Of a stretch of DNA of 20,792 nt, positions 1 to 20,703 are shown piece after piece. The notes below the pieces were generated by a model. That model was not told the origin of the DNA. It did not search any database and saw only the letters and a program-made list of their open reading frames with translations. Position 1 is the stretch's first letter, and each line of letters opens with the position of its first letter. A program made the position numbers and the translations under genes. Origin of the DNA: Nitrospinaceae bacterium (lineage in GTDB: Bacteria > Nitrospinota > Nitrospinia > Nitrospinales > Nitrospinaceae); the NCBI GenBank assembly GCA_965223665.1, contig CBDCXH010000005.1:1-20792 (forward strand), given 5' to 3'.

Positions 1-2
1 CC

Positions 3-33
3 TTTTGAGTTATTGTTATTCATTATTGCGATC
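3..33. repeat. Left-end copies of the 10-bp T(A/G)TTG(T/C)(T/G)A.. motif; candidate integrase arm-type sites
   Basis: TATTGTTATT at 11-20 and TATTGCGATC at 24-33. Positions 3-25 match 20765-20787 at 20/23 positions. Confidence 0.6.
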
Positions 34-54
34 AAAAGGGTGACCCCTAACTTC

Positions 55-1110: not shown

Positions 1111-1112
1111 TT

Positions 1113-1961
1113 ATGGGTTTAGACAATCGTTTTTATTTAAAATATTTAGATATAAAAGAAAAAAAGGAACTTAGCAAAAAAGAAAAAGGGGATCTTAGTT
1201 TGAATAAAATTAAGAAAGGATGCTTTGAAAAATTAAAAGATAAAATTCCAACCCAATCAGGGAAATATTTTGAGGGTTCCGAATGGGATTTTGATTTAAT
1301 GATTGAAGCTTTGGAACTTGGCGGTGAATATGATTTAGAATTACTGAAATTTGAAGAAAATCAAAGGGAGGATTTATGGGATTCCATAGAGCTAAATAAT
1401 CCTCTAAAAAACGAGTTCAATGAGTTCCATAAAAAATTAATTAATGATGTTCTAAAAACAAAAAAAAGTTATCAAAGACTAAAAAGAAAAATAATAAAGA
1501 ATAATTTCAAAAAAATAGAGTTTTCAAAAAATGAAATTAAACTACTTGAAAAAGCCTTAGATTCTGCCGCCAAGTATGAATTTACTATAAATTATATAGA
1601 AGAAGCTTTAGAGAAAGTGTTCGTCCTTACCCAATTAAAAAGGTTTGTTGATGCAATTTTTATGAAACATGGACGGACCGAAAAAGCAGCAAGGTTGGTT
1701 GCTAGGTTAGTCAATTCACCAAGGAAAACAATACCCTGGAAAGCTATTGCTCAAACTTTAAATCGTTTAAGAAAAAAATCCGAATCTGGGAAGCCTTTTG
1801 TTTTTATGGGCGAAAAATATAAAAATAGTTTAACGCGAGATCAAATTATTGATCTAGTTTGTAAAAAACATAAAGACTTTGCCCAGAGTAAAGAATCCTT
1901 AATTAAAGGATTGCGAAGACTAGACGAAAAAAACCTTCCTACACACTACAAATTCAAATAA
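1113..1961 (+). CDS. Hypothetical Lys/Glu-rich protein, possible C-terminal DNA-binding helix bundle
   Basis: 282-aa ORF starting 2 nt after the int stop; very AT-rich; no recognised catalytic motif. Confidence 0.75.
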   Translation: MGLDNRFYLKYLDIKEKKELSKKEKGDLSLNKIKKGCFEKLKDKIPTQSGKYFEGSEWDFDLMIEALELGGEYDLELLKFEENQREDLWDSIELNNPLKNEFNEFHKKLINDVLKTKKSYQRLKRKIIKNNFKKIEFSKNEIKLLEKALDSAAKYEFTINYIEEALEKVFVLTQLKRFVDAIFMKHGRTEKAARLVARLVNSPRKTIPWKAIAQTLNRLRKKSESGKPFVFMGEKYKNSLTRDQIIDLVCKKHKDFAQSKESLIKGLRRLDEKNLPTHYKFK

Positions 1962-2043
1962 TTTTCCACCTTCTTGAAATTAAGGACAATTTCCCCCCCG
2001 GTTTTTGTCCCTGTCAAATAAAAGCATAAATTTCTAAAATTCC

Positions 2044-2103
2044 GTTTGAAACAATCAATATTGTTTATTGATGTTGATTATTGTTTGAAAACAATTTTAG
2101 GAG
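2044..2103 (+). promoter_or_regulatory. Operator-like AAACAAT/ATTGTTT array plus RBS upstream of the xis-primase operon
   Basis: AAACAAT 2049-2055 / ATTGTTT 2060-2066 and ATTGTTT 2080-2086 / AAACAAT 2089-2095; AGGAG at 2099-2103. Confidence 0.5.
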
Positions 2104-2111
2104 CTGAATTT

Positions 2112-2366
2112 ATGAATGACAGAAATCACAGTTCGAAGACGGTAAATCGTTTTCGTAACCCTGCAACAATTGAGGTCCCAGAATTATTAACGGTAGCAAA
2201 GTTTTGCAATAAATATGACTTTATTAGTGAGGGTGGTTTGCGCTACCAAATTTTCAACCGAAAAAATAATGGGTTAGAAAGATCAGAGGCTATTATCAAG
2301 CTGGGTAAGAAAATAATCATTAATGTTCCAAAGTACTTTGAGTGGATTTTGGGAGGAAATAAATGA
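2112..2366 (+). CDS. Small excisionase/AlpA-like winged-HTH DNA-binding protein
   Basis: 84 aa from the ATG at 2112 with an AGGAG RBS. Pattern LLTVAKF...SEGGLRYQIF...IIKLGKKIIINVPKYFEWI fits Xis/AlpA-type proteins. ATGA overlap with the primase gene. Confidence 0.75.
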   Translation: MNDRNHSSKTVNRFRNPATIEVPELLTVAKFCNKYDFISEGGLRYQIFNRKNNGLERSEAIIKLGKKIIINVPKYFEWILGGNK

Positions 2367-5257: not shown

Positions 5258-5556
5258 GCATCCATGAATTATTAGGACGTATTGAAAACATGGGGGGAGA
5301 GGTGTGGGTTGATAGTGATCTATTGAAATTCAAGATTCCAAATCAATATTGCACAGCTGAATTAATGGAACAATTAAAGAAAAGCAAATTCGAAATTATC
5401 CATACTATAAAGGAAAGGCAGCCCAAACCTTATTTAGCTTCAAATGGTGATCTGGTAATTCCCTTCGATTGTGATCAAAAGTACCATTGGTGGAAACCAG
5501 GTAGCATGAAAATTAAGGAAATTAGAGAAGAATTGCAAAAACATTGGAAAAATTAA
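5254..5556 (+). CDS. Small hypothetical protein with a TubC N-terminal docking-domain-like N-terminus
   Basis: MSIHELLGRIENMGGEVWVDSDLLKFKIP...LMEQLKKSKFEII pattern; ATGA overlap with the primase stop; GAGGGGG RBS. Confidence 0.7.
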   Translation: MSIHELLGRIENMGGEVWVDSDLLKFKIPNQYCTAELMEQLKKSKFEIIHTIKERQPKPYLASNGDLVIPFDCDQKYHWWKPGSMKIKEIREELQKHWKN

Positions 5557-5590
5557 TAAGCATATAATTCTAATTTTATTTGGATGAATT

Positions 5591-6301
5591 ATGTCAAAGC
5601 CTAAAGATAAATTAAAAAAAGCATTAAGAGATAAAGTTGAAGTAAAAAACCTGAGAGCCACAGCCAAGGAACTGGAAACGCCACCTTGCGTAGATACTTT
5701 GGGAGCCAGCTTCATGCGTTTAGATGCTGATGAATTAGAAGAACAAGCTCAGAAAGCTTTAAAAATTCCGGAGAATGAACTTCCTGCTGTGGGTTGTGGA
5801 GGTGAGTTATCTCTCTCCAAAGAGAGAGCAGAAGATTTACCCGCTCTGATAAATACCCTCGAAAAACCTGATAATGTAACTGCCGAAGCGAGTCAAGAGC
5901 GACTGCAATTGATATTCGATTCAGACTGCACTGGACTTGCTCTCGATGCGGCTGAAACCATCCAAGCCAAAAACTCGTTAGAAAAAATGCTGGCGCATCA
6001 ATTGGGTGCTGCTCATAAACTGGCGATGACATTTGCCAGTCGTTCACTGAGCAATTTGAGTGAAAGTGATAAAGCAATCACCTTCCAATGCAAGGAATAT
6101 TATTCATTAGAGTCTATACGAGCATCCAATGCTTCTGCCCGAATGATGGAAAGTTTTCAAAAAGGCATATTGGCTCTCAATAAACTACGAAACGGAGGGA
6201 GTCAAACCATCACGGTGCAACATATCAATGTAAAAAATGGAGGACAAGCAGTTGTAGCAGGGGCCTTTGATACCAGGGGGGATCATGAAAAACGTCAATG
6301 A
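5591..6301 (+). CDS. Conserved hypothetical protein of the type found next to HGGxSTG genes
   Basis: Motifs LEKMLAHQLGAAH and LRNGGSQTITVQHINVKNGGQAVVAG, recalled from uncharacterised mobile-element proteins. Confidence 0.75.
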   Translation: MSKPKDKLKKALRDKVEVKNLRATAKELETPPCVDTLGASFMRLDADELEEQAQKALKIPENELPAVGCGGELSLSKERAEDLPALINTLEKPDNVTAEASQERLQLIFDSDCTGLALDAAETIQAKNSLEKMLAHQLGAAHKLAMTFASRSLSNLSESDKAITFQCKEYYSLESIRASNASARMMESFQKGILALNKLRNGGSQTITVQHINVKNGGQAVVAGAFDTRGDHEKRQ

Positions 6302-6593
6302 ACTCCATGTACCCATTTGGGAGATAGGTTTAAACTATGCTAACCAAGCTCCTCGCTGTGGTGCCAAAACCAGACAAAAAACCTCTTGCCAAAGTCCTGC
6401 AATGAAAAATGGACGCTGTCGATTACATGGGGGTAAGAGCACAGGACCTCGCACGTTGGAAGGTTTGCAACGAAGCCGGAAGGCTAACTGGAAACATGGA
6501 AACCGCTCTGCAGAAGTTATTCAACAGAGAAAAGAGTCTATGAAAGTAAAAAAGGAATTAAATCGGTTGGTGGAATCTGTTGGGAATTTGTAA
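6285..6593 (+). CDS. HGGxSTG domain protein (Cys/His, probably metal-binding)
   Basis: RCGAKTR...CQSPAMKNGRCRLHGGKSTGPRT; ATG at 6285 with AGGGGG RBS; overlaps the upstream stop. Confidence 0.88.
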   Translation: MKNVNELHVPIWEIGLNYANQAPRCGAKTRQKTSCQSPAMKNGRCRLHGGKSTGPRTLEGLQRSRKANWKHGNRSAEVIQQRKESMKVKKELNRLVESVGNL

Positions 6594-6768
6594 TTGACAA
6601 AATTATAAAAATCTAAAACGTTTTTTAGCTATAAAAAGTTTCAAAAACCAAAATTTTTTTAAATTTCTCTTAGTTTAACATCTAGTATGAATTTCGGGGT
6701 TTGATCAGTCCAAGCAGGCTGTAATTTTGAACTGTTATTTTGCTCTGAAATAATTTGTATTTTGTTTT

Positions 6769-7527
6769 TTAATTATTTTCCTTTAGCTTCAGAAGTTCAT
6801 CAACTAACCCATGTCGAACTACGTCGATGTTATCCGTTTGCCGCGCCACAAAATCACCAGTTATCATCGAGAGCCGAAACGGGAAAAATGCCGGATTATT
6901 CAGCAAGGGCCCCAAAACCTCTTTGCCTTCAGGGATGGCATTCAACGCTGACTCGAACAACAAGATGGTTAGATTTTTGTCGGGAATGATTATTGGTATT
7001 TTCTTCTCGTAGCAACCTTTTGCATTTGCTTCCTTCAGAACACCCCACGCCACGAAAGAGCGAATTACATACCGGGTATAGCGGCTGACTGTTGATCTAT
7101 CTCCATATTGTTCCTTAATACGGTTTATAATTTGTGTCTGGGTAACCTGATCCTGCAGGGTGAGTAGCCTGCCTGCCTGCCGCGCCACATTAAACCAAAA
7201 CGGATACACAGCAGAAATCATAGCCCAATGAATAGATAGTGCCATGGATGGGTGCTCACAAAGTAATTCTAGGGCTTTGTCCCTAAAGCTCACTAATTCA
7301 GTATCGGGAGAAACCCAAATCTTCATCAGATTATTAACAACGAAGGTGCGGGTCTGATTACTACGTTCACCTTCGAAGCCGTTGCCTTTGCGTTCCAAAA
7401 GGAATTCGTGCAGTTCCTTCCGAATCATCTTGGAATCCAACCCGGCAAGAAGCAAGTTGGTAGTTTTTTGCATCCACTCATAGCGGATGGCCTGTTTGAT
7501 TCCGATGGCATAATGTCGCTTTCCCAT
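6769..7527 (-). CDS. brxA: BREX type 3 BrxA-like protein
   Basis: 252-aa helical protein directly after pglZ (TAATG overlap); occupies the last position of the type 3 order brxF-brxC-pglXI-brxHII-pglZ-brxA. Confidence 0.78.
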   Translation of the reverse strand: MGKRHYAIGIKQAIRYEWMQKTTNLLLAGLDSKMIRKELHEFLLERKGNGFEGERSNQTRTFVVNNLMKIWVSPDTELVSFRDKALELLCEHPSMALSIHWAMISAVYPFWFNVARQAGRLLTLQDQVTQTQIINRIKEQYGDRSTVSRYTRYVIRSFVAWGVLKEANAKGCYEKKIPIIIPDKNLTILLFESALNAIPEGKEVLGPLLNNPAFFPFRLSMITGDFVARQTDNIDVVRHGLVDELLKLKENN

Positions 7528-9521
7528 TACCGTAACTTCCTTTCAAACTTCACCAAGGGCACAATGACTTCCTCAACGGCAATGCCTCCATGACCAACAA
7601 TTGATTCATCAAGATTTACAAACGCATCGCTGGCACCGGCAACGAGTGGGAAATAGTCCGGCGGAAGGCCCACTGGTTGCCACTCGTGGGCAAAAGTAAA
7701 TGTGCTGGCCACCTGAGATCGCAACTCCGACGTTGGATAAACCCGAACTCTCTCACCACGTGTTTCAGCGATGACGCCTTCCGAAGGACGGCCCTTGCCA
7801 CGGCATTCAATATTACCGTGATCAGACGTCATCCAGACTTCATAGCCGTTATCCAGCAAATACCCGATCAGTGATCCGAGAAAACCTCCCTGGCACCACT
7901 GTTTAATCTGATTGTGCATTCCGGCTACACCAAGCTGCATACCGTGCATGATTTTGTCGACCTTGTCCACGACCAAACCAATTGCCTTAGTTTTACCAGG
8001 ATGCATTGTTTTTTCCAATATGCTTTCAACGTCGCCATCGCTCAGGCCTCGTTGGTAGGAAATGTCGAGACGGGAAAGACCAATGCCTTCCCAGAACTGC
8101 TTCCAGAGATTACCTTCGCTGTTGGTTGAATTAATTGACGATGGGAAATACAGTGGTGGTTTACCGGAAAAGATCGCCTGCCTAGATACAGATGTCAACG
8201 TCGGAATCCAAGCGAAGGTCGCAGATTCTCGCATAATCAGACTCCGATCCTGATCCTGGAGAGTCCGGCGAATGGTGACCCACTGATCCAACGCAAGCCC
8301 ATCGACCACAAGTAGGGCAACGCGACCTTCCTTCATATCTTCCAGACAGCGGGCCAGACATCGCGGGACATGGTGTAGCATCGCTGGGCTGGTCGGTGGC
8401 AAGTTGATCAAGCTAGCATAGTGAGCACTCAGCCACTGGGCAAAGGTTGCGTTCAAACCATCACCCATTTCCCTCAGCTTGTTCTTATCCGCTTCGTTGG
8501 AGCTACAGTGAACCAAGGCAGACAATTCGGCCCATTTCATAGCAAAGAAAGTCCAATCCGAATACTGGGCTTCTACAGTAGGAATACCATTCTCAGCAAG
8601 CCCGAAGAGGCGAGAAATACGCACTTCGTTATTATCCGCATCTGCTGCAATGATGCCGCAGCGTATCCAGGAATCAGTATCAATGACAACCTCGGGCTTC
8701 TGTATTGGGGAGAGTTTCCCTTCAACGAATAGATTACCGATGTAAACTCTGATGTCTTGATGATCAAACGGCAGGACATCAGGCCCCGCATATTTAAGAC
8801 CATACTCCGGGTCGTTCTCACACACCTGGTCTGACGTGCCTAGTTTATTTAAGAATAGCGGCCAGCGCTCCTGGAGAAATTCAAAGAAGGTTTCCCCATC
8901 CGGCACGATCTCATCCAGTGGCCATGCATGAAAGCAGTTATGCCCATTGAGTACCTGCACAATTCGATCAGCCAGTGCTTGTGGGATCTGAGTTTTATTG
9001 TTGTGCTGGCGGAGTAGTGTTCTCAATAGATCCACTTCATTCGTAATCAGTTCAGCCGCAATGCCGAACACCTGCCGCAAAATAAAGTCCTTGGTTGCAT
9101 TGTCCCCCATACGGTCGGGTGTCGACTTGCTCTGCGCCTCGAAGAGAATGTCCAGTAGACTGCGATCCAACTTTTCAATAACCCGATAGCTTAGATTTGG
9201 GAAAAGTCCGCCCAGATCAAAGGCCAACTTTCTTCCAGCCTGAAGTAAATCATACGGCAGAGATTTCAGTTCCGCATCCTGAAGACGAAGAATGACAACT
9301 AGATCGGTATGCTCACCACGATCCCAGATCGAGCGATATTTCGATTCATAGGCGTAACGGAACTCGACCGGATCGTTGAATTCAATCAGATCAAAACCCC
9401 GGTGGCGCAACTCAAGTGCTAGCATCTCCTCGGTTAGCAGACTGTCCGGGTCGGCGACCAGGGTGAGCTTGCTGACGTTCGGGACAAAATCGTTCAGGAT
9501 GGCGTCTCGCCAACTTCTCAT
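7527..9521 (-). CDS. pglZ: BREX-3 PglZ (alkaline-phosphatase superfamily)
   Basis: VVDGL, PTLTSVSRQAIF, TSDHG and HGG motifs; operon context. Confidence 0.93.
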   Translation of the reverse strand: MRSWRDAILNDFVPNVSKLTLVADPDSLLTEEMLALELRHRGFDLIEFNDPVEFRYAYESKYRSIWDRGEHTDLVVILRLQDAELKSLPYDLLQAGRKLAFDLGGLFPNLSYRVIEKLDRSLLDILFEAQSKSTPDRMGDNATKDFILRQVFGIAAELITNEVDLLRTLLRQHNNKTQIPQALADRIVQVLNGHNCFHAWPLDEIVPDGETFFEFLQERWPLFLNKLGTSDQVCENDPEYGLKYAGPDVLPFDHQDIRVYIGNLFVEGKLSPIQKPEVVIDTDSWIRCGIIAADADNNEVRISRLFGLAENGIPTVEAQYSDWTFFAMKWAELSALVHCSSNEADKNKLREMGDGLNATFAQWLSAHYASLINLPPTSPAMLHHVPRCLARCLEDMKEGRVALLVVDGLALDQWVTIRRTLQDQDRSLIMRESATFAWIPTLTSVSRQAIFSGKPPLYFPSSINSTNSEGNLWKQFWEGIGLSRLDISYQRGLSDGDVESILEKTMHPGKTKAIGLVVDKVDKIMHGMQLGVAGMHNQIKQWCQGGFLGSLIGYLLDNGYEVWMTSDHGNIECRGKGRPSEGVIAETRGERVRVYPTSELRSQVASTFTFAHEWQPVGLPPDYFPLVAGASDAFVNLDESIVGHGGIAVEEVIVPLVKFERKLR

Positions 9522-9982
9522 TGAGGGCCCCTCTTGATAATGCGCATCAGCAATAGTGGTCTAATTTTTGGAACGACCTGGCTAGCTAATTCGAGTTCAC
9601 TTCGCCAATCGGCTTCATCGGCCAACAGATAACCAAATTGATAGCCATAGATGGCTCGGGATAAGGCATGGATCTGGTGTGGCAACGGGATGACCTTAGA
9701 CTCGATAGGAGCCAGTAGCACATGGTCATCAGACTTGCTGGTGCTACCTTCCAAAACTTCAGACACTTTTACTGCCGCCACGATATAATTAATGCGATGA
9801 GCTTCGACATCGGGCTGCAATTCGGCCCCCAGTGGACACAATGCGGAGCGGGAAACCCGCACTACGGCATCCTGGTTTGGCAGCCAGACCCGACAAACCA
9901 TCTGTCCCCACAATGTCTGTTCTTCGACCTTGCAGGCACAGTTATGGATGGTTCTGTATTGCCATTGGTCCTCCATCGTCAT
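9518..9982 (-). pseudogene. brxHII: BrxHII SNF2-type helicase remnant with an internal in-frame deletion
   Basis: N-terminus runs through the Q-motif PLPHQ to LLADE, where GLGKT (motif I) should follow, but continues into ADWRSELE...IRPLLLMRI and stops after 154 aa. It sits in the brxHII slot and is coupled to both neighbours. Confidence 0.85.
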
Positions 9983-11028
9983 TACCCAGGTATTGAAAAA
10001 TCATTGTGGAAAACAACTGACGCTAACTCGATTGTCCCGTCGGAACATTCCCAGAAGTGGAGATGAAACTCTCTATCGATGTCTCGCCGCTGGGCTTTAT
10101 CAGCACCACGCATTCGTTGTGGGTCATTGCCACCAGGGCCAGTTCTAAGCGAATGAACATAAGCCAAATTCTGGCCTTTAATTGTTTCTATGATCGAGCG
10201 AAGTATTTTCGGCGGCAATGAATCACTTTGGCTCACACAACACTGCTGGCAGGTTTCTCTAAAATTAGCACCAATGCTTGGCACTGATGTATTACTCCAA
10301 TCTGGAATATCTTTTTGCTCAAGATCATATTTAAATAAGGCAATTCGAAGTGATAGTTTAATCCCAAGATCATCTGATGCGCCAACGAATATTGCTGCCT
10401 CGTCAAGACATTGTATTAGCCCATTGAAATCGTCGCATACTAATACCTCGCCTTCAAAGAATTCTGGTGGGCAAGGCAAAACGGGGAGATCGTCTCGTTC
10501 GTGCTCAATCTCATGAATTTGCGCTCTGACTTTAATGACCTGTTTTGGTGCTTCTCTCAATATGAAAGAATGCCCAGCAAGTGGTTGCGAACAATGTTTT
10601 CGGAGAATTGCAATTAGGGTGATACATCGCGCCAAATCCGATTGGAGTCCCTCCCAAGCTGTCAGTCTTATTATGTCCGGGTCTGTCTCAAGATGATCCG
10701 TTAGAACATCTTTTAATCGATAGTATGTTTCAAAAGAAGGGGTGATGGTCAGTAGTCGATCTACAATTGTAGCGACCGTGTTTACGTCATATTCGGATAT
10801 TCCATGCGCATCGAATATCTCACTAAGCTGATTCCGTAATGGATAAAGATTATCCGCAATAAGAGCTTCAGATGCCCTTTCGCTCATACGAATGGCTACC
10901 CAAGGTTCATCCAGGAGTTTGCTCCAATCCAGCAGCGTATCAATGTACTGATAAGCGTCATCAATGGTACAGGTGGATTGAGGAGCTGCAAGGATTCCAG
11001 CATCAATTGTTACGCTGAAATTATTCAT
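9982..11028 (-). CDS. Hypothetical protein; putative effector with a RelE/ParE-like C-terminal pattern
   Basis: 348 aa from the ATG at 11028 (GTG at 11031 is an alternative start); overlaps the ATPase stop. C-terminus RRDIDREFHLHFW...IELASVVFH resembles the end of RelE-fold RNases (inference). Confidence 0.7.
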   Translation of the reverse strand: MNNFSVTIDAGILAAPQSTCTIDDAYQYIDTLLDWSKLLDEPWVAIRMSERASEALIADNLYPLRNQLSEIFDAHGISEYDVNTVATIVDRLLTITPSFETYYRLKDVLTDHLETDPDIIRLTAWEGLQSDLARCITLIAILRKHCSQPLAGHSFILREAPKQVIKVRAQIHEIEHERDDLPVLPCPPEFFEGEVLVCDDFNGLIQCLDEAAIFVGASDDLGIKLSLRIALFKYDLEQKDIPDWSNTSVPSIGANFRETCQQCCVSQSDSLPPKILRSIIETIKGQNLAYVHSLRTGPGGNDPQRMRGADKAQRRDIDREFHLHFWECSDGTIELASVVFHNDFSIPG

Positions 11029-12937
11029 CACTCTTCTTTCTGCTTGCTTTTCTTTTTACAGTGGCGGCCCGCAAAATTTCTTCCGCCTGTTGCTGAGATT
11101 GATCAAAAAAGCCCTCTGGCCAGTCGGAGATAGCACCATACTCATTGATGATGACTTCGCGGAAAGAAGAGTTTTCCAGTGGTTTTTCGACGAAGTAAAT
11201 CTTTGTCTGGCTATTGAGTTCTTTGCCCGAGGCTGCTGCAATTCGGAATCTCAGACGGTCAATAAAATACTCGCTGTGAGTTTCAACGATACACTGCTTG
11301 TTACATATAGCCATCGACAAGAAAAAATCTCCTAGGAGCGTCTGAACCTTGGGGTGAAGGTGTAATTCTGGTTGCTCGAACACTAGTGTTGAGTCTGTGT
11401 CGGCCAAAAGGCACATTACTAGGATAGGAAGAACCTGGCTGACACCAACGCCGACATGCGTAAGATCATGAGTGGCATCTGAGTTGGCTAATCCTACCTT
11501 TAACTCATACCCTAACTTACCTTGATCACGACTTTTTACTGAGCTTGCAACGCCGAGGTATTGAAGCCAGTCAATAACTGCGGCCTCAAGGGTTCTCGTA
11601 ACTGTTTTACGGTTAATTGTTGGTGTTTCGAAGTGTGCTGAGGGAATGTACTCTATTTTTTTGTTCTTGTGCAGCTCAAGAATAGAGGCTGTGTGCTCGC
11701 CACGCAATCCAACATCATGTGGATCTGCTGCTGGCGCAAGTGGGTACAGGGGTTTAGGAGCATCCCTCAGTGGGCCAAGATACTTTAGTGATGAAGCAAA
11801 AAAATTATCTAAATAACACGCGGATTCTGTGATCTGCCGTGGTGGACGGGTTTGAACAAAATCATGATGTTCTGATGACGATGGACTCGATTCCTTCATT
11901 GCCCCAACGATGCGATCAAAGAGGTCGTCTGACTCTCGCAAGGCTTGCTGGATCTTCATTCTGGTATTACGTGGCAATGACCGCATGTGCTCATTCCAAG
12001 CCCTGAACGACATCGATTCGGAATCAGAACCGAAGAGGTGTTGCTGCTGATCCTTATCCCTGAAAGCATCGTCAAAATCTATGATATCCTCAAGTACATC
12101 ACGCAACACAGAAATAATCTCTTTAGAAAAAAGAATGTCTCTGCCTAGACGGTGCCGGAGTCCAATGGCACGACGGCCATCATCTTGCAGCACCATAATG
12201 AGCGCGTTGGCTTCTTCTTGGATGGTGTCAATTCCGTAAACGACACGCTCTGGAAGAAAGTGGCGTAGGACGCAACCAATGGCGCGGGCCGAACGAAAAT
12301 CTTCTTTTACTTCAGCCATGGATGTGTCGTCAATGTCGACGTCATAGGAGAGGCTGGTACGGAGCTGATCATCGATTTCACCGATGGTGTCCATGCCATC
12401 AATTTCAGAAAAACCTTTATTGGAAAGGCGGACTGCAATCTCTGCGCTTTTATCTACATTATCCTCATCTCTTGATGTGCAGCTTAATTCGCTCGCGAAT
12501 AACCTTGGCTGTATTTGAAACAAGTCTCTCAGAGAACTGGAAGGATCTGCATCAAATGAAATTTCGCATGTTATTTCCCGAAGCTGATATGATTGTAGAC
12601 CATAATAAAAATCCCTTCCAAATGGAACAGACCTCCGATGCGCTATCCTGTCAGGATCAGATAATGGACGGCAAGTACATTTGATTGAGATTTGATCTGA
12701 CACACTACCGTTCGACTTCAGGTCGTCGAATTGGCCAAGGCTCGTAAGCGCTCCGTTCAAAACTACTGATCGAGAGCTCACCTTATGGGCGAGTGTTTGA
12801 GCCACAAGCAGGATCGACTGGATAAATGTACTCTTACCACTGCTATTCGCTCCGGCGAAAATGGTAAGTGGTCCGAGATCCAATTCAGTCTCCTCCCGAA
12901 TTGACTTAAAATTAAACACCTTCCATTTGGTGATCAT
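11021..12937 (-). CDS. ABC-type (AAA_15/AAA_21-like) ATPase with a DUF3696-like C-terminus
   Basis: NFKS start; Walker A GANSSGKS; YLGPLR; signature-like GVGVSQ; Walker B VFEQPELHLHP; H-loop ETHS; C-terminal WPEGFFDQ. Confidence 0.9.
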   Translation of the reverse strand: MITKWKVFNFKSIREETELDLGPLTIFAGANSSGKSTFIQSILLVAQTLAHKVSSRSVVLNGALTSLGQFDDLKSNGSVSDQISIKCTCRPLSDPDRIAHRRSVPFGRDFYYGLQSYQLREITCEISFDADPSSSLRDLFQIQPRLFASELSCTSRDEDNVDKSAEIAVRLSNKGFSEIDGMDTIGEIDDQLRTSLSYDVDIDDTSMAEVKEDFRSARAIGCVLRHFLPERVVYGIDTIQEEANALIMVLQDDGRRAIGLRHRLGRDILFSKEIISVLRDVLEDIIDFDDAFRDKDQQQHLFGSDSESMSFRAWNEHMRSLPRNTRMKIQQALRESDDLFDRIVGAMKESSPSSSEHHDFVQTRPPRQITESACYLDNFFASSLKYLGPLRDAPKPLYPLAPAADPHDVGLRGEHTASILELHKNKKIEYIPSAHFETPTINRKTVTRTLEAAVIDWLQYLGVASSVKSRDQGKLGYELKVGLANSDATHDLTHVGVGVSQVLPILVMCLLADTDSTLVFEQPELHLHPKVQTLLGDFFLSMAICNKQCIVETHSEYFIDRLRFRIAAASGKELNSQTKIYFVEKPLENSSFREVIINEYGAISDWPEGFFDQSQQQAEEILRAATVKRKASRKKSDE

Positions 12938-12940
12938 TTG

Positions 12941-15787
12941 CTACTCGCCTCCCATTCTTGTTACTGCCTGGTCGTACCACATGAGCAATTTTGGATCTTC
13001 TTCGAGGATTTTGTTGGGGATTTTGTTAGCTACGGCCACAATGATGGCATAGTCCCGCTCCTGCCAGGCTTTTTTGAAACCCGTGCGGACAGCCTCCAAA
13101 CGAAAGGCCTTAAGTTGCTTTTTAACCTGCTTGTATTCCTCAAATTCCTTGAGCAGGTCTTTCTCGCGCAGTTTTTCGAGGTCGCCCGCCTTGTTAGGGT
13201 CGGGCACATACCAGCGGTCTTGTGCCTTTGCCACCAGTGACGAAGCGTCCTTGGGCAGATTACGCAATTCCTTCCAATTGGATGAGAGGTAAGCGTGGAT
13301 CTGCTCTGGCACTAATCCTTTTCCATCATAACGAAGGAAGTTTTGTTCAAGTAGCGTTGATAATTCAAGTGGAATCTCATTCTTATTCCAGCCACTGATT
13401 TCACGCATAAACAGCGGATGCAACTCTTGAAAAGATTGCGGCCGTTCTTTTAATAGTTGTCGTAGCCATTGTATGGCCGTCGCTTCATCCGAGATAAAGA
13501 ATGATGCTTGTATAAGCTCCTTACAAAGCATTCTCTTTCTGTCATAATCAGCGACTTGATCAGCTAAGAAAAACATCCCATCCCTTTCTGAAAAACGCTG
13601 CGTGAGGCCCAGGTAAAAGTTAGAAGAAGAGATTGAAACAGGCACTCCTCTTTGAACGTGAAAGGCGACCATTCGGTCAAACAACAGATAATTCTGTCTT
13701 TCCAAAATAGCTTCTGCCCGTCCATCTTTATATGTAAATACTGGAAGTTGCTTCAGATGTGTTCTAACAAAGTCCCAGACACCTTCTTCAGTGCCAGCTT
13801 CATGTCCGAATCGTTTCTCTAATCCCCCATTAGGCTTATATGCTGAGATAATTAGGTCTTGTTTTACCGCATTGGTGCTTGTCATTTGTTGCATTGTCAT
13901 CTGTTTTTTGTCTAATGTGCGTACATCAGCAACAACAAAACCTGCAAATTGCAAGGCTTCTTGTATCGATACCCATACACTATTTTTTGAATTGTGAAAC
14001 TCTACAGTCATCCATCTACCAGGCTTTAATGCTTTGTAATAATTATCAAAACATTGAGTCATTAGTGCTTGGTATTCGGCCATGCCTTTAGATTGCTTTT
14101 TGCTTACTACCGCCTCTTGGTGAGTGTTCTCAACTATCCCAAGCCAACTATCCCAAATAAAGTTCAAATCAGAGTACATTATATTTCCGCCAAATGGCGG
14201 ATCAGTAAAAATATAATCGACAGAATTTTCACACAGGAAGTTGTCAGCACTGGATCGTGCGTTAACCAAATTTAAAGAGGTCCGGTTTAAGGAGAGCAAT
14301 TTTTTTATTTTTTTTATTTTTCCTTTCAAAGCATACTCCAAAGACACTTCTGTGGTGAATGGGGCCACATACAGGGTTCCTTTGAGATACCTATTTACTT
14401 GAGAAAACGAAGCTTCCAAATAGCGATTGAGTTTGGAAAAACCTAGAATGCCAGTTTGAATCCAAAATTTAAGAGTAAGACTTTGTTTCGATGCATCTGC
14501 TCTGTTCCACGCAATAGCTAGCATGGCTAATGTTCGTTTCGTATAAAAGTGATGTATATGCGTAAGACCAATGTTATCGTTTCGTCTTGCCTCATCTCCA
14601 TCAGGCATTCTTAGACATGGGAACGCAAAATCTATTTTGTAGTTTTCAATCTTGTAAAGTGTATCGAGATCGTCTCTGTCAGGTGTTTTTTCAAATTTTT
14701 GTCCATCGTATGAGTAATTTATTAAAACCGGTTGTTGTTTTATTTGGGATACCGTGGTGCCTAGAGTACTGTCATATCGGGTTTCTTTAACTCTTTCCCA
14801 TTTTTTAAGCACCGATTCTGAAGAACACCCTGAACATTTAATGGGTTCATCTTTTTTCTTTCTATATCTTGTGTCGGGATCGACTGCGAGATCCCAATAT
14901 GTAGATTCATAACCACAATTTTCGCAGCGAAATACCTCGCTCCATACTGTATAGTTAATTTTCCCTGGCCGATTGTCAGTATGCTTAGTTTTATACATCC
15001 ACCCGCATTGCTCTTCGGCTTCCTTGAGAATACGCTTGGCTTCCTTTTCAAAAGAAGCGACATCCACCGATGTATTATAGTTATATGCTATGAAGGTAGC
15101 AGCAGGTGACAAGTCATTCAATACTGCCCGGCGCATGCCTAGTTTACCAAAAGGTTTCCATACCTTCTGGCCTTTCTCATTAATTTCTTCCTGCAAAATG
15201 GTGCCGTCTGGTTTTACCTGATAGCCAAGCGACATGACCGTATCTCGATCACCACACATTTGGGCGGCAACGCCGGTCATACCTGTGCCGCAAAAACCAT
15301 CGAAAACAATATCCCCTGGCTCGGTGTAATGCAGGATGTAACGCATGATGGCCTTGTGAGGGACCTTGGTGTGGTAGGAGTGTACATTGTAAATAGGATC
15401 GCTCTTGCCTTCGCTTACGTCAGCTGCGAACGGTTCACGGTGGTATTGGTAGTCCTCTGGTTTTTCTGGCTTTTCCCCTTCCCATTCGGCAATAAAATCG
15501 GCAACCCAGGGATTCGGGCAGGCCGTATAGTACGGCGGATCGCTTAAGGTCAGGATATTCTCATCGCTGCCGATGGGAAAGCCCTCGATCTTACGAAACT
15601 CCAGATCGCGTAGCTTTTTGCGTAGCTTTTCGTTGAAGTACTTGCGCCGTTCCTCGTCATTGTTAAAGGTCATGCCGAGACAGGTCACCGGTTCTGATTG
15701 GGGCAATATCTCCTCCTCAAAAAGTTGGTCGGAGCCTTTTTTTGCAGGAACCATTCTAGTTTGGAATAGATTGTCTTGCTTGGTCAT
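12941..15787 (-). CDS. pglXI: BREX-3 DNA amino-methyltransferase PglXI
   Basis: SAM-binding DGFCGTGMTG; catalytic TDPPF; zinc ribbon CENC...CSGC; HSYHTKVP motif; lies downstream of brxC. Confidence 0.9.
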   Translation of the reverse strand: MTKQDNLFQTRMVPAKKGSDQLFEEEILPQSEPVTCLGMTFNNDEERRKYFNEKLRKKLRDLEFRKIEGFPIGSDENILTLSDPPYYTACPNPWVADFIAEWEGEKPEKPEDYQYHREPFAADVSEGKSDPIYNVHSYHTKVPHKAIMRYILHYTEPGDIVFDGFCGTGMTGVAAQMCGDRDTVMSLGYQVKPDGTILQEEINEKGQKVWKPFGKLGMRRAVLNDLSPAATFIAYNYNTSVDVASFEKEAKRILKEAEEQCGWMYKTKHTDNRPGKINYTVWSEVFRCENCGYESTYWDLAVDPDTRYRKKKDEPIKCSGCSSESVLKKWERVKETRYDSTLGTTVSQIKQQPVLINYSYDGQKFEKTPDRDDLDTLYKIENYKIDFAFPCLRMPDGDEARRNDNIGLTHIHHFYTKRTLAMLAIAWNRADASKQSLTLKFWIQTGILGFSKLNRYLEASFSQVNRYLKGTLYVAPFTTEVSLEYALKGKIKKIKKLLSLNRTSLNLVNARSSADNFLCENSVDYIFTDPPFGGNIMYSDLNFIWDSWLGIVENTHQEAVVSKKQSKGMAEYQALMTQCFDNYYKALKPGRWMTVEFHNSKNSVWVSIQEALQFAGFVVADVRTLDKKQMTMQQMTSTNAVKQDLIISAYKPNGGLEKRFGHEAGTEEGVWDFVRTHLKQLPVFTYKDGRAEAILERQNYLLFDRMVAFHVQRGVPVSISSSNFYLGLTQRFSERDGMFFLADQVADYDRKRMLCKELIQASFFISDEATAIQWLRQLLKERPQSFQELHPLFMREISGWNKNEIPLELSTLLEQNFLRYDGKGLVPEQIHAYLSSNWKELRNLPKDASSLVAKAQDRWYVPDPNKAGDLEKLREKDLLKEFEEYKQVKKQLKAFRLEAVRTGFKKAWQERDYAIIVAVANKIPNKILEEDPKLLMWYDQAVTRMGGE

Positions 15788-15843
15788 TAGTAATCTTTCT
15801 GGTTGCTGCCGCAGTAAATTAAAATTCGCTTTTCATCGATCAT
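15787..15843 (-). CDS. 18-aa mini-ORF (MIDEKRILIYCGSNQKDY) coupled to pglXI
   Basis: ATG at 15843 preceded by AGGA; its TAA overlaps the pglXI ATG (TAATG); fills most of the brxC-pglXI gap. Confidence 0.4.
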   Translation of the reverse strand: MIDEKRILIYCGSNQKDY

Positions 15844-15854
15844 TTTATTGTTTC

Positions 15855-18800
15855 CTACTCTATTACGATTCTTACTTTGGCCGGGTCTTTGCCCTTGGTA
15901 AGTTGATCTATATATTCCTCAAAGCGTTTTTTCATCTCCCCCGGGGTGGCCGGACCGTTTGCGACCTGCAGGGCATTCTGCAAGTCCTGTGCTTTTACTG
16001 TAACTTTGACCAGACCAGAGAGCACCTCTTTAAGGGCATGCACGAAGTTGCTGTTTAGCGGTACCGGCAACTCACGCGATTTGATGAAGGCTTCCAGCGG
16101 TTCGCGATCGTCAATCTTTAGCAGGTCCATGTTGGCTTGGGTGATCGGGTCCTCCAGGTTGCCGAGAATAGTGGAAGTCCAGCCCGCAATCATGGCATCG
16201 AGTTCGGTGTCCATCTGGTCAATCATTTGCGAGCCTGTCCCTGCAACGGTTTCGATCGACGGACGTAAACCGCAGTGCGGGCAGATAGGGGTAGAATCCA
16301 GGTCCTGCTCGGTCAGGGCAATACAGCTCTTTTGTCCTGCCAAGCGGTTTTGAAAATCGGTGAGCTGTTGCCTCGGCATCAGGTCGATACCTGCCAGTTT
16401 GAGCAGAGTTTGCAGCCGCGGGTCATTGAGTAGCGCCGCTTTGCGCTTGTCATCGTTCATGCCCAGCCTGGCTTTGGTGTGTAGGCCGATGTAGGCAACA
16501 ATGTAATCCTTCTTGAGCTTTCGAAGTTTGGTTCCGGTGTCGTGGGATTGTGTTGTCAGTTCGGACAGGGTCGCCGGTTTAAGTACATCTAGGATATCCT
16601 GTCGGGTCGCCTTCATGCGGTCCACCCAATCGTGCTCGGCGGGAAGCACCGCTTCGGCGGTGGAGAGCCATGAAGCCGTTGGACCATGGCCCATGACGAA
16701 CTCGCGCAGGGCGGCAAGATCATCCAAGGCCTTTATTGCCTTTTCGTAAGCTATCACTTCCTGGGCGCTGTAACGGAAGTTCTTCAGCTTTCCCGGCGAT
16801 GAGTAGGCCTGAAGCGATTCAAAGAAAGTCTTGGCTTCGTCCAGTCCATTAGCCTGCCTGTCTAGGTCGGTGCCCGCGAGCAGATCAAGCCCCCAGAAAG
16901 AAAGACTTTCCTGCAGCGTCTGCTGGGTCATGACAATGCGTTTGACCACATTACCCACGGCATGCTGAAGGTTCTGTAATGGCTCTTCCTTACCTTGGGT
17001 GACAAGCTGGGCCATACCCGGCGTCATGCCGAGTAATTCGAATAAAGCCTTGAGTGCAGGCAGATTCCATTCCTTTGGCTGTTCCAGGTGCTTGAACCGA
17101 ACCAATTCGTCCATACCGGTTGCGGCAAGCTGTTGAAGCCCAGTGGCATCAAACTTCTTTCCAGGGATTGCAAGCACGACGTCGCCCGAATAAATCAAGG
17201 CTGCAAGGATAACCGCTACCCATTCAGGTTCCAGCCTTGAGGCTCCCGGATTCATGTACTCGAGACCGTGGTCGTCCTGGATGATTTCGCTACGGTTCAC
17301 CACCTGCCCATGCCCCTTGGCCTTTATGGCATCAAGGATGAACTTGGCGTACTTCGATTTGTAGGGATCAATTTTTTCGCCATCGAGCAATTCCAGAGCG
17401 TCTAATACAGCTGTGGCCTGTTTGGTGCGGTTCTGCCCAGCAATGGCCCTCAGGGTATCCTGTGCGGCCTGGACAAGATTGTTACCTGTGATTAGGACTG
17501 AAAACTTTGGGTAGTCGGGTGCTTGATCAACAAAGTTTGGTGCAAGGCAAATACCCGCGATAGCATTTATTAAATCACGAAAATTGATGGTCTCGTTAGG
17601 AGCTACCCCGGAAATATCTCGAACTGACATCCCCTTTGCCCACTCAGTCATTGACTTGGTACGTCCCTGATAAGTAACTTCGAAGGCTTCGCTCATGTGC
17701 TTCTGCAGCCATTGGACTAACTTTTTTAAGAAGCCGTTGGCTTTCGACTCGTATGTGGACTTAGCATGCCCAGATGAGGTGGCCGCTAGATCAAGCGCTG
17801 CTGCATAGCTCTTAAGCGCGGTCAGAAATTCTTCGTCGGTGCCTTTCAGCCTGAAGAATACCTCATCTTTCCATTTGTCATCCTTAAACCGAGGCGGATC
17901 GTTCGGCTGGATGAAATAAAGATAAAAGTCTCGCTGAGGCACAGCGGTGGAACGCTCATTGGGAGCCCCGAAGAACATATAGCCTGTACGTGCCGCCTTA
18001 CGCTCATGCCATACTAACTCATGCTGCCATATCTTATAACCGGTAACATAGGTGGCATCTTGGCATTCCATGACCCGTTTGAGAGCCTCATAATAGAAGC
18101 GATCGAGGTGAGCTTTATCCAAGCTTTCAGCTCGTTTGTCGATCAGGGCATCGAAGTCGTCGGTCTTTTTCAGGTCCAGATAGAACTGACTGTTATCCTC
18201 ATTAAAGGAAATGAACTGGCCGCTAACCGTATTGTGTATTTCGCGCAAGACGGTTTCCACATGAGTCTGTAAATCTTTGTCTGGTTCGTCACTGCCCAAC
18301 TCAACGATCATGGGTTCAAAAAGGCAAAGGCGATCACGCAATTCCTCAGCAGATGCGCCCATTGGAGCATGTATGTCGCCAGTGGTCAGACGATGGACTG
18401 AAAGTGCGTGTATAAGGCGCAGTGCCATCGGCTTATACTGTTTGCGGGTGATACCGTTTTCGATACGCGATTCCAACACTTGGCTGCAATCCATAACCGC
18501 CCTGATTTCAGGAATGGTACGGAAGGATGCGTTCTGTTTGAGCGTGTTCCAGTAACTATCAAAGGCAATCAGTGCCGGCTCGTCCGGGGGCACATCTTTT
18601 CCCAGAACCCCTTTCATACAGATGGATAGAGTCCTTAGCACCTCACGTTTTTCGACCACGGAGACCCGCTCGAATGTGTCGATGTAATCGGGATGCACGG
18701 GGAAGAGCCGGACGAATTCATCCATACGCTCGTTGAGTCCTCCATAGTATTTAGCAAAGGGCGTCAGGTATTCTCGGATCTTGGCTTGCTGCTCGGCGGT

Positions 18801-19586
18801 CTTCTTAAGCAGACGCTCGGACACCACAAACTTGACGTCATTCCTTGCGATTAGAATCTGTTCAAAGCGATCCTTTACCCGGCGAACGCTGTCGGCCACA
18901 AAGGAAAAACGGGGGCTATCAAAAATGGCTTCCTGCACACCGGCCATAAAGCGAAAGCGCAGGTCTTTACATACTTCTCCGACCTCGCGTAGGAAGTTGA
19001 GGTCTAGTATCAGTTCCTGGTCCTTGCGAGTGCGTAAATAGTCTAGCAATTCATCGACCACCAGGAGCAAGCCGTGTTCAGGATAAGCCTGACCGAACTT
19101 CTCCATCATGTCTTCGAAGGCCCTCTTATGGTTGGTTGTTGCATCGATCTCTGGAAAGACATAATCTACACCGAGCTTATCGAGGTTTTCTTCAAGTTCG
19201 GCGATTAGAATATCGCGCAGGGACATGGTGGTTGCACCGATTTCAGTGCGGATGACCTTAAAGCGGCCAGCAATCTGCTTTGCAGCTTGGGTTACATTAG
19301 TATGATTAAGGTTGTCCAATAGAGATGCATCTGCAGCAAGACTGGATACCACCGACATCAAATGTGATTTGCCGGTTCCGTAGTTGCCAACAACCAGGAT
19401 GCCTTTGTTATCTACTGGCTGTTCGAACTGCAACTGCGGAAAAACAAGTTGAATCAGTCGTTCCGCCATTTCCTCTGAAATGACGTAGGTATTGATAAGA
19501 TGCTGTGCGGCGCTGGCTCTGTCCGCATCACGCAACTGAACAACTGATTCAATCGGGTCAAATTGGATAAGATCACCATATTTCAT
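15855..19586 (-). CDS. brxC: BREX-3 large P-loop ATPase BrxC/PglY (DUF6079-like)
   Basis: 1243 aa; Walker A GNYGTGKS; Walker B VVDE; FPVHP motif; C-terminal CPHC; TAATG overlap with brxF. Confidence 0.9.
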
Positions 19587-20098
19587 TATTTTGCTGCCCC
19601 TTTTGTTTTCTTTTCTGAATCGATTGTTGCCGTTCCATCCATACCCACTATTAATGCATCGACCATGTCATAACTCCTATACTCAGGATGTCCTATTTCG
19701 GCATAGACAAGCATCTGGCCCTCGATTGCACCACTCCAGGATGCCAATACCGTTCGATTTCTGGATATGCTCTGCAGGAGCCGCAAGGGATCTTGCTTCA
19801 AATCTTTGTCAAATAGGATTTCTAGGTTATCAAGAACCACAATCGCCTTTGCATTATCAGCAACGTGATCTATTATTCTGGGCAGGTGGAGTGCCCGTTG
19901 TTTATCCGTCAGCTCGAGCAATTCAGTTGAGATAGCCAGACTAATATTTATGACTTCAGTATCAAAGCTATCTGCGGTTCCACGAAGGACACCGGTTTTG
20001 CCAGAACTAGTCTCACCCACCAGCAATACCAAACGGTGATACAGGCCATCGGCTACCTGGAGGGATCGTTTTATTTTACTTTGAATTAAATCTGTCAT
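19586..20098 (-). CDS. brxF: BREX-3 P-loop protein BrxF
   Basis: [40 protein letters not shown]; first brx gene of the operon. Confidence 0.9.
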
Positions 20099-20396
20099 GG
20101 TTTTTACTAATTGACTGATTTCCTACTCTTTTTTTTCTTGATTGCATTTCTATATGAATATCCACTCGCTGGTCTAGTTTATTAAGAATTTTAATCAACC
20201 GGTCAATAGTAAATCGGCCAAGATCTCCATTTCGAATACGGGAAAAATCAGCAGCGGTAAATTTTGTAGCAGCCTGAGCTTCCCGAACGGATAATTTCCG
20301 GTCTTCAAGGATATGAATAATTTTTTCACTTAAACCTGCCTTAATTTGATCTATATCATGGCTATTAGAAACAGCTTGTTTGGTTGCAGTCTTCAT
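20076..20396 (-). CDS. XRE-family (HTH_37/HigA-like) transcriptional regulator
   Basis: LSVREAQAATKFTAADFSRIRNGDLGRFTIDRLIKIL HTH pattern; ATG at 20396 with AGGA upstream; overlaps the brxF start by 23 nt. Confidence 0.85.
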   Translation of the reverse strand: MKTATKQAVSNSHDIDQIKAGLSEKIIHILEDRKLSVREAQAATKFTAADFSRIRNGDLGRFTIDRLIKILNKLDQRVDIHIEMQSRKKRVGNQSISKNHDRFNSK

Positions 20397-20413
20397 ATTG
20401 TAGTTGTTCCTAC

Positions 20414-20456
20414 TTATAGTTTTTATTAGACTTAAACATATTGTCAAAAATGACAA
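20414..20456 (-). promoter_or_regulatory. Candidate promoter/operator of the defence operon
   Basis: Perfect palindrome TTGTCA-AAAA-TGACAA (20441-20456) overlaps a minus-strand TTGACA (20447-20442). The -10 box is weak (TAAAAA at 16-nt spacing). Confidence 0.6.
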
Positions 20457-20703
20457 CACCGGTCAAGGATATTTTGGGAGGACTTTACCTCTACTTTTTA
20501 ATGACTTTTAATTTCCTTTATGGCGTCTTTTTATTGCCCTAAGCGTGAACCTCTTTCCGTTTCTATCTGCAGGGGTTAGAAAAACATTACATCGATCTAC
20601 CTGCTTTACTCCTATTTACTGAAGTTTGACCTGACCTCAAAAATTTAGTCCAAAAGTTCAAATGGGCCAAAAAAAGGCCAATGGACTATCATTTTTCTCA
20701 ATT

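Follow-up and report, generated by a model that had tools for sequence, protein, structure and literature searches.

What becomes of a type 3 bacteriophage exclusion (BREX) operon that has lost its helicase and carries an ATPase-effector gene pair in its midst: is it a new hybrid defense system, or a composite of separate parts? The question is raised by a stretch of 20,792 bases from Nitrospinaceae bacterium (GenBank assembly GCA_965223665.1, contig CBDCXH010000005.1), which we call the window. It is an entire contig, and the host assembly comprises 4.35 Mb in six contigs and is 98.6% complete. Canonical type 3 BREX has the gene order brxF-brxC-pglXI-brxHII-pglZ-brxA (PMC12839542, Nucleic Acids Research (NAR) 2026). 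An initial annotation of the window had offered three accounts of the locus: that the pair replaces the helicase-dependent restriction step, that the locus is a methylation-only BREX alongside an independent abortive-infection module, or that it is in early decay. We find that the second fits best, with an intact and constrained core, a drifting helicase remnant, and a pair that also stands free outside BREX. The locus is probably a type 3 BREX with a deleted helicase plus a separate, self-contained ATPase-effector cargo; its core would methylate, its exclusion would be lost or largely lost, and the two features would have arisen independently. It is a fairly ordinary composite and no new hybrid system.

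An in-frame deletion in brxHII

On the minus strand, from 20459 to 6769, the window holds a packed operon of a helix-turn-helix (HTH) gene, brxF, brxC, pglXI, the ATPase gene, a gene of 349 amino acids (aa), the brxHII stub, pglZ, and brxA. Neighboring genes overlap by 1-23 nt or are separated by gaps of 3-11 nt, apart from a spacer of 67 nt between brxC and pglXI. The features at the center of the question are the following.

9518 to 9982, minus strand: brxHII stub, 154 aa; PADLOC BrxH 1.8e-40, covering profile positions 2-115 of 933
9614 to 9622, minus strand: deletion junction in the brxHII stub, Ala-Asp-Glu codons GCC GAT GAA
11021 to 12937, minus strand: cargo gene 1, NsnB-like OLD-type ABC ATPase, 638 aa, with AAA_15, AAA_21, and a C-terminal DUF3696
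9982 to 11031, minus strand: cargo gene 2, NsnC-like effector, 349 aa from a GTG start (the database copy begins one codon later and has 348 aa)

The stub consists of BrxHII residues 1-123 joined in frame to residues 934-967, numbered on the 967-aa full-length BrxHII of locus L004. In a blastp alignment with this reference, stub residues 1-131 match residues 1-132, and stub residues 121-154 match residues 934-967. The Tudor-like N-domain and the Q-motif region are retained; nothing is left from the Walker A loop onward. About 810 codons are missing, every helicase motif is removed, and the Swi2/Snf2 motor is gone. In all ten full-length homologues inspected (10/10), an Ala-Asp-Glu microhomology (GCN-GAY-GAR) occurs twice, once immediately ahead of the Walker A loop and once at residues 934-936. 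The stub arose by a clean in-frame deletion between these two short direct repeats, and it preserves the native brxHII start as well as the native stop, which overlaps the pglZ start. Logan contigs of the runs X1, X2, and X3, assembled separately, span the junction with no differences, joints, or loose ends; all three runs come from one sample, possibly the window's source, at a depth of about 3-4x.

The gene chain described in the initial annotation is present in full, on one strand and tightly packed, and the eight genes other than the helicase are free of stops and frameshifts, as it had stated. Its view that the helicase is destroyed right beside the inserted pair does not hold. Loci with an intact helicase show the same junction between the cargo and the brxHII start, and the break lies 123 codons inside brxHII; therefore, the deletion was an event separate from the insertion.

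In the host's own genome, at 98.6% completeness, we found no second BrxHII, only two generic helicase matches with 31-32% identity over about 100-130 residues. The window thus has no full-length Swi2/Snf2 helicase of the kind expected for BREX type 3. Because BrxHII occurs in only 77% of type 3 loci in a published survey, we classify the locus as a derivative of type 3 BREX with the helicase deleted.

We also considered whether the stub might represent a conserved "mini-BrxHII" protein family, and dropped the idea, having found no set of diverged proteins with the stub's architecture. Among 203 short BrxHII-like proteins, 19 were aligned with the stub. Most of these are N-terminal fragments that pass the Walker A loop and then end, and they look like products of contig ends or frameshifts. 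Four (P0307, P0341, P0344, and P0381) are fusions of N- and C-termini, each with its own junction; that of P0341 lies at about the same two sites as in the window, but the identity is only 49%.

The rest of the BREX core is complete, and its matches to Pfam, PADLOC, and NCBIfam are all strong and type-3-specific. The PADLOC run suggested in the initial annotation matched BrxF, BrxC, PglXI, BrxH (partial), PglZ, BrxA, and NsnB. The core genes are the following.

19586 to 20098, minus strand: brxF, P-loop protein, 170 aa; Walker A at residue 28; PADLOC BrxF 1.3e-59; NCBIfam NF033453 BREX_3_BrxF 184 bits (cut-off 50)
15855 to 19586, minus strand: brxC/pglY, ATPase, 1243 aa, full length; Walker A at residue 67; Pfam DUF6079 1914 bits over 1-1243; PADLOC BrxC 2104 bits
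12941 to 15787, minus strand: pglXI (BrxXI), N6-adenine methyltransferase, 948 aa, full length; PADLOC PglXI 1446 bits over 20-947; Pfam N6_N4_Mtase 1e-16
7527 to 9521, minus strand: pglZ of BREX-3 type, 664 aa, full length; NCBIfam NF033449 BREX_PglZ_3 882.5 bits (cut-off 250) over residues 5-659; PADLOC PglZ 1067 bits
6769 to 7527, minus strand: brxA, 252 aa, full length; PADLOC BrxA 3.5e-111 over 1-251

PglXI carries the FxGxG motif for binding S-adenosylmethionine at residue 165 and DPPY/DPPF motifs at residues 83 and 529. BrxC of the window is 82-88% identical to that of eight other loci across residues 1-1243. The window therefore shares five of the six core genes with type 3 BREX, at full length, in canonical order, and with matches to type-3-specific models, and it differs in that BrxHII is cut to a 154-aa stub of its N- and C-termini.

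The stub has changed at conserved sites and the core has not. As the measure of constraint for the stub, we used columns that are at least 95% conserved in 53 intact BrxHII sequences. The stub is changed at 10 of 67 such columns and at 4 of 35 invariant ones, and no intact locus exceeds 4/67 in the stub region. In the window's other proteins, conserved columns are changed at 5/311 in PglZ, 5/268 in PglXI, 5/138 in the BrxC C-terminus, and 0/43 in BrxA (0-3.6%); compared with each of these, the stub differs with Fisher p values from 2e-5 to 8e-3. Thus, the stub has drifted for some time while the core stayed constrained and open.

The survey of other BREX-3 loci described below adds two further points. 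Eight loci, the window and seven others, hold brxHII remnants with both ends, and six of these remnants are in frame with native start and stop (P of about 0.02 against a one-in-three expectation, by our own arithmetic). This is about as expected if pglZ expression is still selected. In addition, all 13 helicase-less loci of the survey retain an open pglZ frame. These patterns fit a locus that is kept under selection.

The nested pair and its distribution among BREX-3 loci

The first gene of the pair encodes the NsnB-like ATPase. Its Pfam matches are AAA_15 (5e-25), AAA_21 (2e-17), and DUF3696 (7e-12, residues 576-620), and its best PADLOC defense model is NsnB (3.9e-76), followed by HEC-03B (2e-53) and PDC-M55A (4e-43). 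Walker A lies at residue 29, and QPE and THSE motifs are present. We detected 2521 homologues at E<=1e-10, and where these are named, the name is "DUF3696 domain-containing protein". The gene starts 3 nt from pglXI and is overlapped by the effector gene by 11 nt.

The second protein was identified by its fold. It has no match in Pfam, PADLOC (E<=0.01, NsnC included), or NCBIfam, although its family is sizable, with 590 homologues and 609 representatives of 50% clusters. A Pfam scan of 104 family members gave no match (0/104), a profile search of Protein Data Bank sequences with the family gave a chance match only (E 0.4), and a search of plasmids with the effector protein gave none. An AlphaFold2 model built on a 104-sequence alignment has a mean predicted local distance difference test score (pLDDT) of 96.0 and a predicted template modeling score of 0.91. 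In VIA-align comparisons of this model, residues 248-346 superpose on the toxin YafQ (4q2u_B) with Z 9.0 and a root-mean-square deviation of 2.5, aligning 85 of 90 YafQ residues, and also on RelE, YoeB, and ParE toxins; residues 2-209 match PIN domains with Z 5.0-5.7. Foldseek likewise places YafQ and RelE on top, with prob 0.99, at an E of only 0.045. In the predicted structure, the effector is thus a PIN-like N-domain followed by a C-domain of YafQ/RelE (BECR) fold.

H293, R296, R315, H325, and H342 are invariant or nearly so in the 104 family members and are retained in the window, whose effector keeps 18 of 19 family-conserved residues; D10 and E101 of the PIN-like domain are conserved in the family. 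The C-domain also occurs alone, at the end of proteins of 475-927 aa, in 10/401 genomes of another phylum. In the three cases examined (L105:4477-7020, L106:4482-6551, and L107:4404-5879), it is preceded each time by an S1 RNA-binding domain, which fits an RNA target. Modeling of two ATPase tails with the effector gave a score of 0.45 (best control 0.00), with runs sharing at least 86% of contacts and a partner pLDDT of at least 79. In the benchmark for such predictions, 58 of 80 solved complexes passed the threshold, as did 2 of 110 mismatched pairs; scores of at most 0.60 came from only seven of the 80 and from both mismatches. The predicted complex lends slight backing to a contact between ATPase and effector.

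The closest known relative of the pair is Menshen (NsnA-NsnB-NsnC). NsnC has an inactive-PIN-like domain and a YafQ-like "PB-BECR1" domain, with BECR in the commonest type, and 27.9% of Menshen operons adjoin BREX, restriction-modification, or methylase genes (PMC12065111, NAR 2025). Like NsnB, whose model it matches, the window ATPase combines AAA_15 with DUF3696, but it is about twice the length of that model (638 aa versus 345 positions), and only the two ends match. Its partner has the NsnC architecture by fold only (PIN-like plus YafQ-like BECR, with His/Arg conserved). The window also differs from Menshen in having no NsnA (ParB-DUF262, ParBDB); the gene upstream of the ATPase is pglXI. 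We found no NsnA in the locus and no DUF262 (PF03235) in the genome at its 98.6% completeness, with a control search that detected the domain in 7 of 14 known genomes. The pair also occurs without NsnA outside BREX: in 1/400 genomes of another class (G187), a 644-aa DUF3696 ATPase and a 355-aa family member adjoin McrBC genes.

Modules of this general kind are known from other BREX operons. PARIS-like AriA/AriB and the StySA ATPase-DUF4435 genes are likewise two-gene ATPase-effector modules nested in a BREX operon. The window effector differs in being a RelE/YafQ-fold domain behind a PIN-like domain and not a Toprim nuclease. OLD-type ABC ATPases with Toprim, HNH, restriction endonuclease (REase), or PIN nucleases have been described as "backup effectors" embedded in BREX operons; 594 taxa have an OLD-ABC ATPase with an HNH, REase, or PIN nuclease as its partner (PMC12839542). 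The main text of that study mentions neither DUF3696 nor BECR.

To place the window among its relatives, we surveyed BREX-3 loci. From the 141 relatives detected in a PglZ scan, we retained the best 80 loci; 14 of these are cut too near pglZ to be judged, and 66 are assessable. A full-length BrxHII frame is present in 53 of the 66, and 13 are without intact BrxHII. Both pair genes occur as close homologues in 13 other loci, always between pglXI and brxHII; 11 of these have a full-length helicase, and two (L041 and L048) have it deleted, with other breakpoints. The remaining 53 loci comprise 42 with a full-length helicase and 11 in which it is deleted or absent; they include two with the ATPase and a divergent partner, both full-length. 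The rate of helicase loss is therefore 15% with the pair (2/13) and 21% without it (11/53), and we see no sign of an association between the two. On the PglZ tree, pair and helicase loss are both scattered, with 12 changes each for 14 rows. An independent-pairs test found no association, although its power is low and the tree poorly resolved, with 6 of 62 inner branches starred.

Ten other loci in the survey have brxHII deletions that are comparable to the window's but differ in their breakpoints. Nearly all loci use the pglXI-brxHII junction as a cargo slot: the gap between the two genes is at least 1 kb in 42 of 45 intact loci, and other cargo found there includes Schlafen-type, AAA-plus-subtilase, and HEC-01 modules.

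Several individual loci of the survey are of separate interest. L062, L077, and L033, all helicase-less, share a 443-aa AAA_21 ATPase and a DUF4276 protein of about 220 aa (in L077, PADLOC HEC-01A 1.6e-197 and HEC-01B 2e-85). At L025:4878-5054, the initial 60 or so codons of brxHII are present a second time within the cargo region, upstream of an internally deleted brxHII; this looks like the recombination scar of a cassette exchange. L009, L010, and L011 (about 6040-7113) have identical PglZ, and the ATPase partner in L010 is a family member with only 22% identity (hhalign probability 99.9) in which the conserved His/Arg positions differ. From its sequence, this partner looks like an effector swap or an inactivated variant within an otherwise identical operon. 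Full-length BrxHII is 92-98% identical among the L004-L045 loci, which are titled with different phyla (e.g., Desulfofustis, Stutzerimonas, Phycisphaerae, and Synergistaceae). This points to a very recent spread of one BREX-3 lineage. The window's BrxHII copy is an outlier, at about 73-78% identity.

Probable methylation without restriction, and the alternatives

In the mechanism that we propose, an in-frame deletion of about 810 codons between the Ala-Asp-Glu microhomologies took out the brxHII motor, leaving a 154-aa stub that maintains translational coupling to pglZ. BrxF, BrxC, PglXI, PglZ, and BrxA would still methylate host DNA, and helicase-dependent phage exclusion would be lost or largely lost, a state of methylation without restriction (M+ R-). 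The pair would work independently, as an RNase module that is gated by its ATPase and resembles Septu, PARIS, and Menshen (cf. PMC12065111). The DUF3696 tail of the ATPase may hold the effector, and the ATPase, once triggered, would release RNA cleavage by the effector's YafQ/RelE-fold C-domain and so abort the infection. On this account, the pair does not stand in for the helicase.

The M+ R- state is suggested by analogy with type 1 BREX lacking BrxL. In the BREX-1 of E. coli HS, deletion of brxL leaves methylation and abolishes protection (PMC6326788), and a study of the Salmonella StySA BREX-1 reached the same conclusion on brxL loss, namely that methylation stays and protection is lost (PMC9009780). 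BrxHII has been proposed to fill the role of BrxL in type 3 (PMC12839542). We infer methylation without restriction in the window because of these two points taken together. Like the E. coli HS mutant, the window has lost a component on the motor/effector side and kept the methyltransferase, PglZ, and BrxC. BrxL and BrxHII are, however, unrelated proteins whose equivalence is a proposal, and the window lost its motor naturally and, it appears, long ago. Removal of the nested ATPase gene or of the DUF4435 gene from StySA left methylation unaffected (PMC9009780).

Several observations weigh against this explanation. In the literature, we found neither methylation nor phage data on type 3 BREX. 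In helicase-less loci, more conserved PglZ columns are changed than in intact ones (median 7 versus 2 of 327; Mann-Whitney p 0.005), and helicase-less L041 has a stop in brxA; some helicase-less loci may thus be decaying. The window's own PglZ, changed at 6/327, lies above the intact median, and the window is also the most divergent lineage of its clade. Confirmation of the junction comes from reads of a single sample, at low depth. As for the effector, it has no sequence-level match to any PADLOC model, NsnC included, the Z of its PIN-like match is middling, and the predicted complex with the ATPase tails is weak support. Compared with 13 close relatives, the effector is changed at 24/208 invariant columns, which is not different from the stub (p 0.52); with a reference set so small and closely related, this is a weak measure.

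The alternative that survives best is that helicase-less BREX-3 still excludes phage. PglZ, BrxC, and PglXI would then suffice, BrxHII would be accessory, and the locus would be a fully working defense with an extra abortive-infection layer. We regard this as possible, if doubtful. The constraint on the window's core genes is compatible with it, as are the 13 of 66 assessable loci that are without intact BrxHII and in all of which the pglZ frame is open. The title of one study (PMC12205998) describes type 1 PglZ as a metal-dependent nuclease. In the published survey, PglZ is treated as the primary effector, and only 702 of the taxa with type 3 BREX (77%) carry BrxHII (PMC12839542). However, type 1 BREX needs the analogous motor BrxL for protection. 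BrxHII ranks with the best-conserved proteins of these loci, with 92-98% identity across phyla in many, which indicates that it matters where present, and conserved PglZ columns are changed somewhat more often in helicase-less loci.

A more speculative reading, which we consider rather unlikely, is that the NsnA-less pair serves BREX-3 specifically as a guard. With no sensor of its own, the pair would rely on its ATPase to monitor either the BREX-3 machinery itself or its phage inhibitors, in the way that PARIS looks out for Ocr. Where recurrent in-frame excision of BrxHII has turned restriction off, the pair would be the only killing arm, and the locus would represent a selected "methylate plus abort" state, not a broken system.

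The destroyed helicase might instead mark the whole locus as a recently inactivated, neutrally decaying relic without current function. The absence of the locus from 60 related genomes, which makes it dispensable to the lineage, agrees with this, as do the brxA stop in L041 and the excess of PglZ changes in helicase-less loci. Yet the eight other genes, with about 13 kb of coding sequence, are free of stops and frameshifts; the stub is changed at 10 of 67 conserved columns, against 0-3.6% in PglZ, PglXI, BrxC, and BrxA; and the in-frame deletion preserves the stop/start overlap with pglZ. We therefore judge a relic to be distinctly improbable, and the early decay suggested in the initial annotation is argued against by the intact frames and the low change at conserved columns.

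Still less can be said for a hybrid system in which the pair took over the BrxHII step and BREX-3 recognition now feeds the RNase effector. Three features speak for it: the pair lacks an NsnA-type sensor of its own, the locus having no DUF262 gene and the genome search having found no PF03235; it sits within the operon, with junctions of 3 nt and 1 nt to its neighbors; and pair and deleted helicase occur together in three loci, the window counted. Against this, 11 of the 13 other pair-bearing loci have full-length BrxHII, helicase loss is equally frequent without the pair, and the two do not track each other on the PglZ tree. The window pair matches pairs beside intact helicases in length and keeps the same conserved residues, and the pair is found outside any BREX locus, again without NsnA. 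The deletion, moreover, starts 123 codons inside brxHII and not at the edge of the cargo. A takeover of the helicase step, which had been the first suggestion for this locus, is thus very unlikely, and the correlation between insert and brxHII loss for which a survey had been recommended did not appear, since loci with the same insert normally keep full-length brxHII.

Finally, we give next to no credence to the notion, raised earlier as an assembly error, that the short brxHII is an assembly or binning artefact in an organism that really has the full-length gene: depth is low (about 3-4x in the Logan contigs) and the runs are all from one sample, but the separately assembled contigs of three runs cross the junction without difference, the junction is in frame and at a microhomology, the stub has diverged at conserved sites, something that a collapsed assembly would not yield, and similar deletions with different breakpoints occur in 10 other loci.

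A helicase-deleted type 3 BREX with separate cargo does not overturn current views; helicase-less type 3 loci and embedded ATPase-nuclease pairs have already been published (PMC12839542). What the window adds is modest: a well-resolved microhomology deletion, evidence of selection on the rest of the operon, and an NsnA-less pair of NsnB/NsnC type as a recurrent BREX-3 passenger. A microhomology-flanked in-frame brxHII deletion, with drift of the stub set against a constrained core, is not described in the parts of PMC12839542 considered here. We found no experimental study of type 3 BREX in the literature. Natural in-frame brxHII deletions within a constrained operon are ready-made mutants for asking whether the helicase is the restriction arm, as with BrxL, and why the other five genes are kept. 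A Menshen-like pair that recurs with no Menshen sensor subunit is relevant to the question of what triggers such modules.

The upstream genes and the carrier island

The remaining features of the window lie upstream of brxF, in the brxC-pglXI spacer, and on the integrase side of the contig.

20076 to 20459, minus strand: HTH protein of HTH_37/Cro-C1 type, 127 aa, GTG start; Pfam HTH_37 E 1.7e-15; PHROG HTH DNA-binding protein 5e-7
15787 to 15843, minus strand: open reading frame (ORF) of 18 codons in the 67-nt brxC-pglXI spacer, its stop overlapping the pglXI ATG; below the 20-aa limit of ORF listing
1 to 6593, plus strand: carrier island with a tyrosine integrase, a primase/helicase-like protein, and five small ORFs, the genes converging on the BREX operon
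1 to 1110, plus strand: tyrosine integrase, truncated by the contig start; Pfam Phage_integrase 2e-32; PHROG integrase 6e-76
2363 to 5257, plus strand: primase/helicase-like protein, 964 aa, with a CHC2 zinc finger (Zn_ribbon_DnaG 1e-12) and DUF927; PHROG DNA primase/helicase 1e-17

The 18-codon ORF had been counted as a gene of the chain. We reject it: nothing supports it, and in L048 the brxC-pglXI gap is only about 15 nt, so that conservation there is impossible. It is probably a chance ORF.

The HTH gene overlaps the brxF start by 23 nt, and its product is a candidate local regulator. By tblastn, we found no counterpart upstream of brxF in four other BREX-3 loci with at least 5 kb of upstream sequence each. 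The HTH_37 gene may be a lineage-specific regulator or part of the island.

The window is a horizontally acquired island with an integrase and a primase. GC content is 30-44% on the integrase side (1-6593) and 44-55% in the BREX part, and no BREX-3 PglZ was found in 60 related genomes. The absence of the operon from these genomes, together with the contrast in GC content, indicates that the locus is the acquired cargo of an island. There is no transfer RNA gene in the window, and the right contig end is not repeated elsewhere in the genome. Promoter and terminator scans of the window gave site numbers no higher than in shuffled sequence, and whole-locus DNA searches against E. coli genomes and plasmids gave no match. 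Two of the island's small ORFs have matches of their own: one of 100 aa matches a TubC_N docking domain (1.8e-8), and one of 108 aa has a weak small-terminase match.

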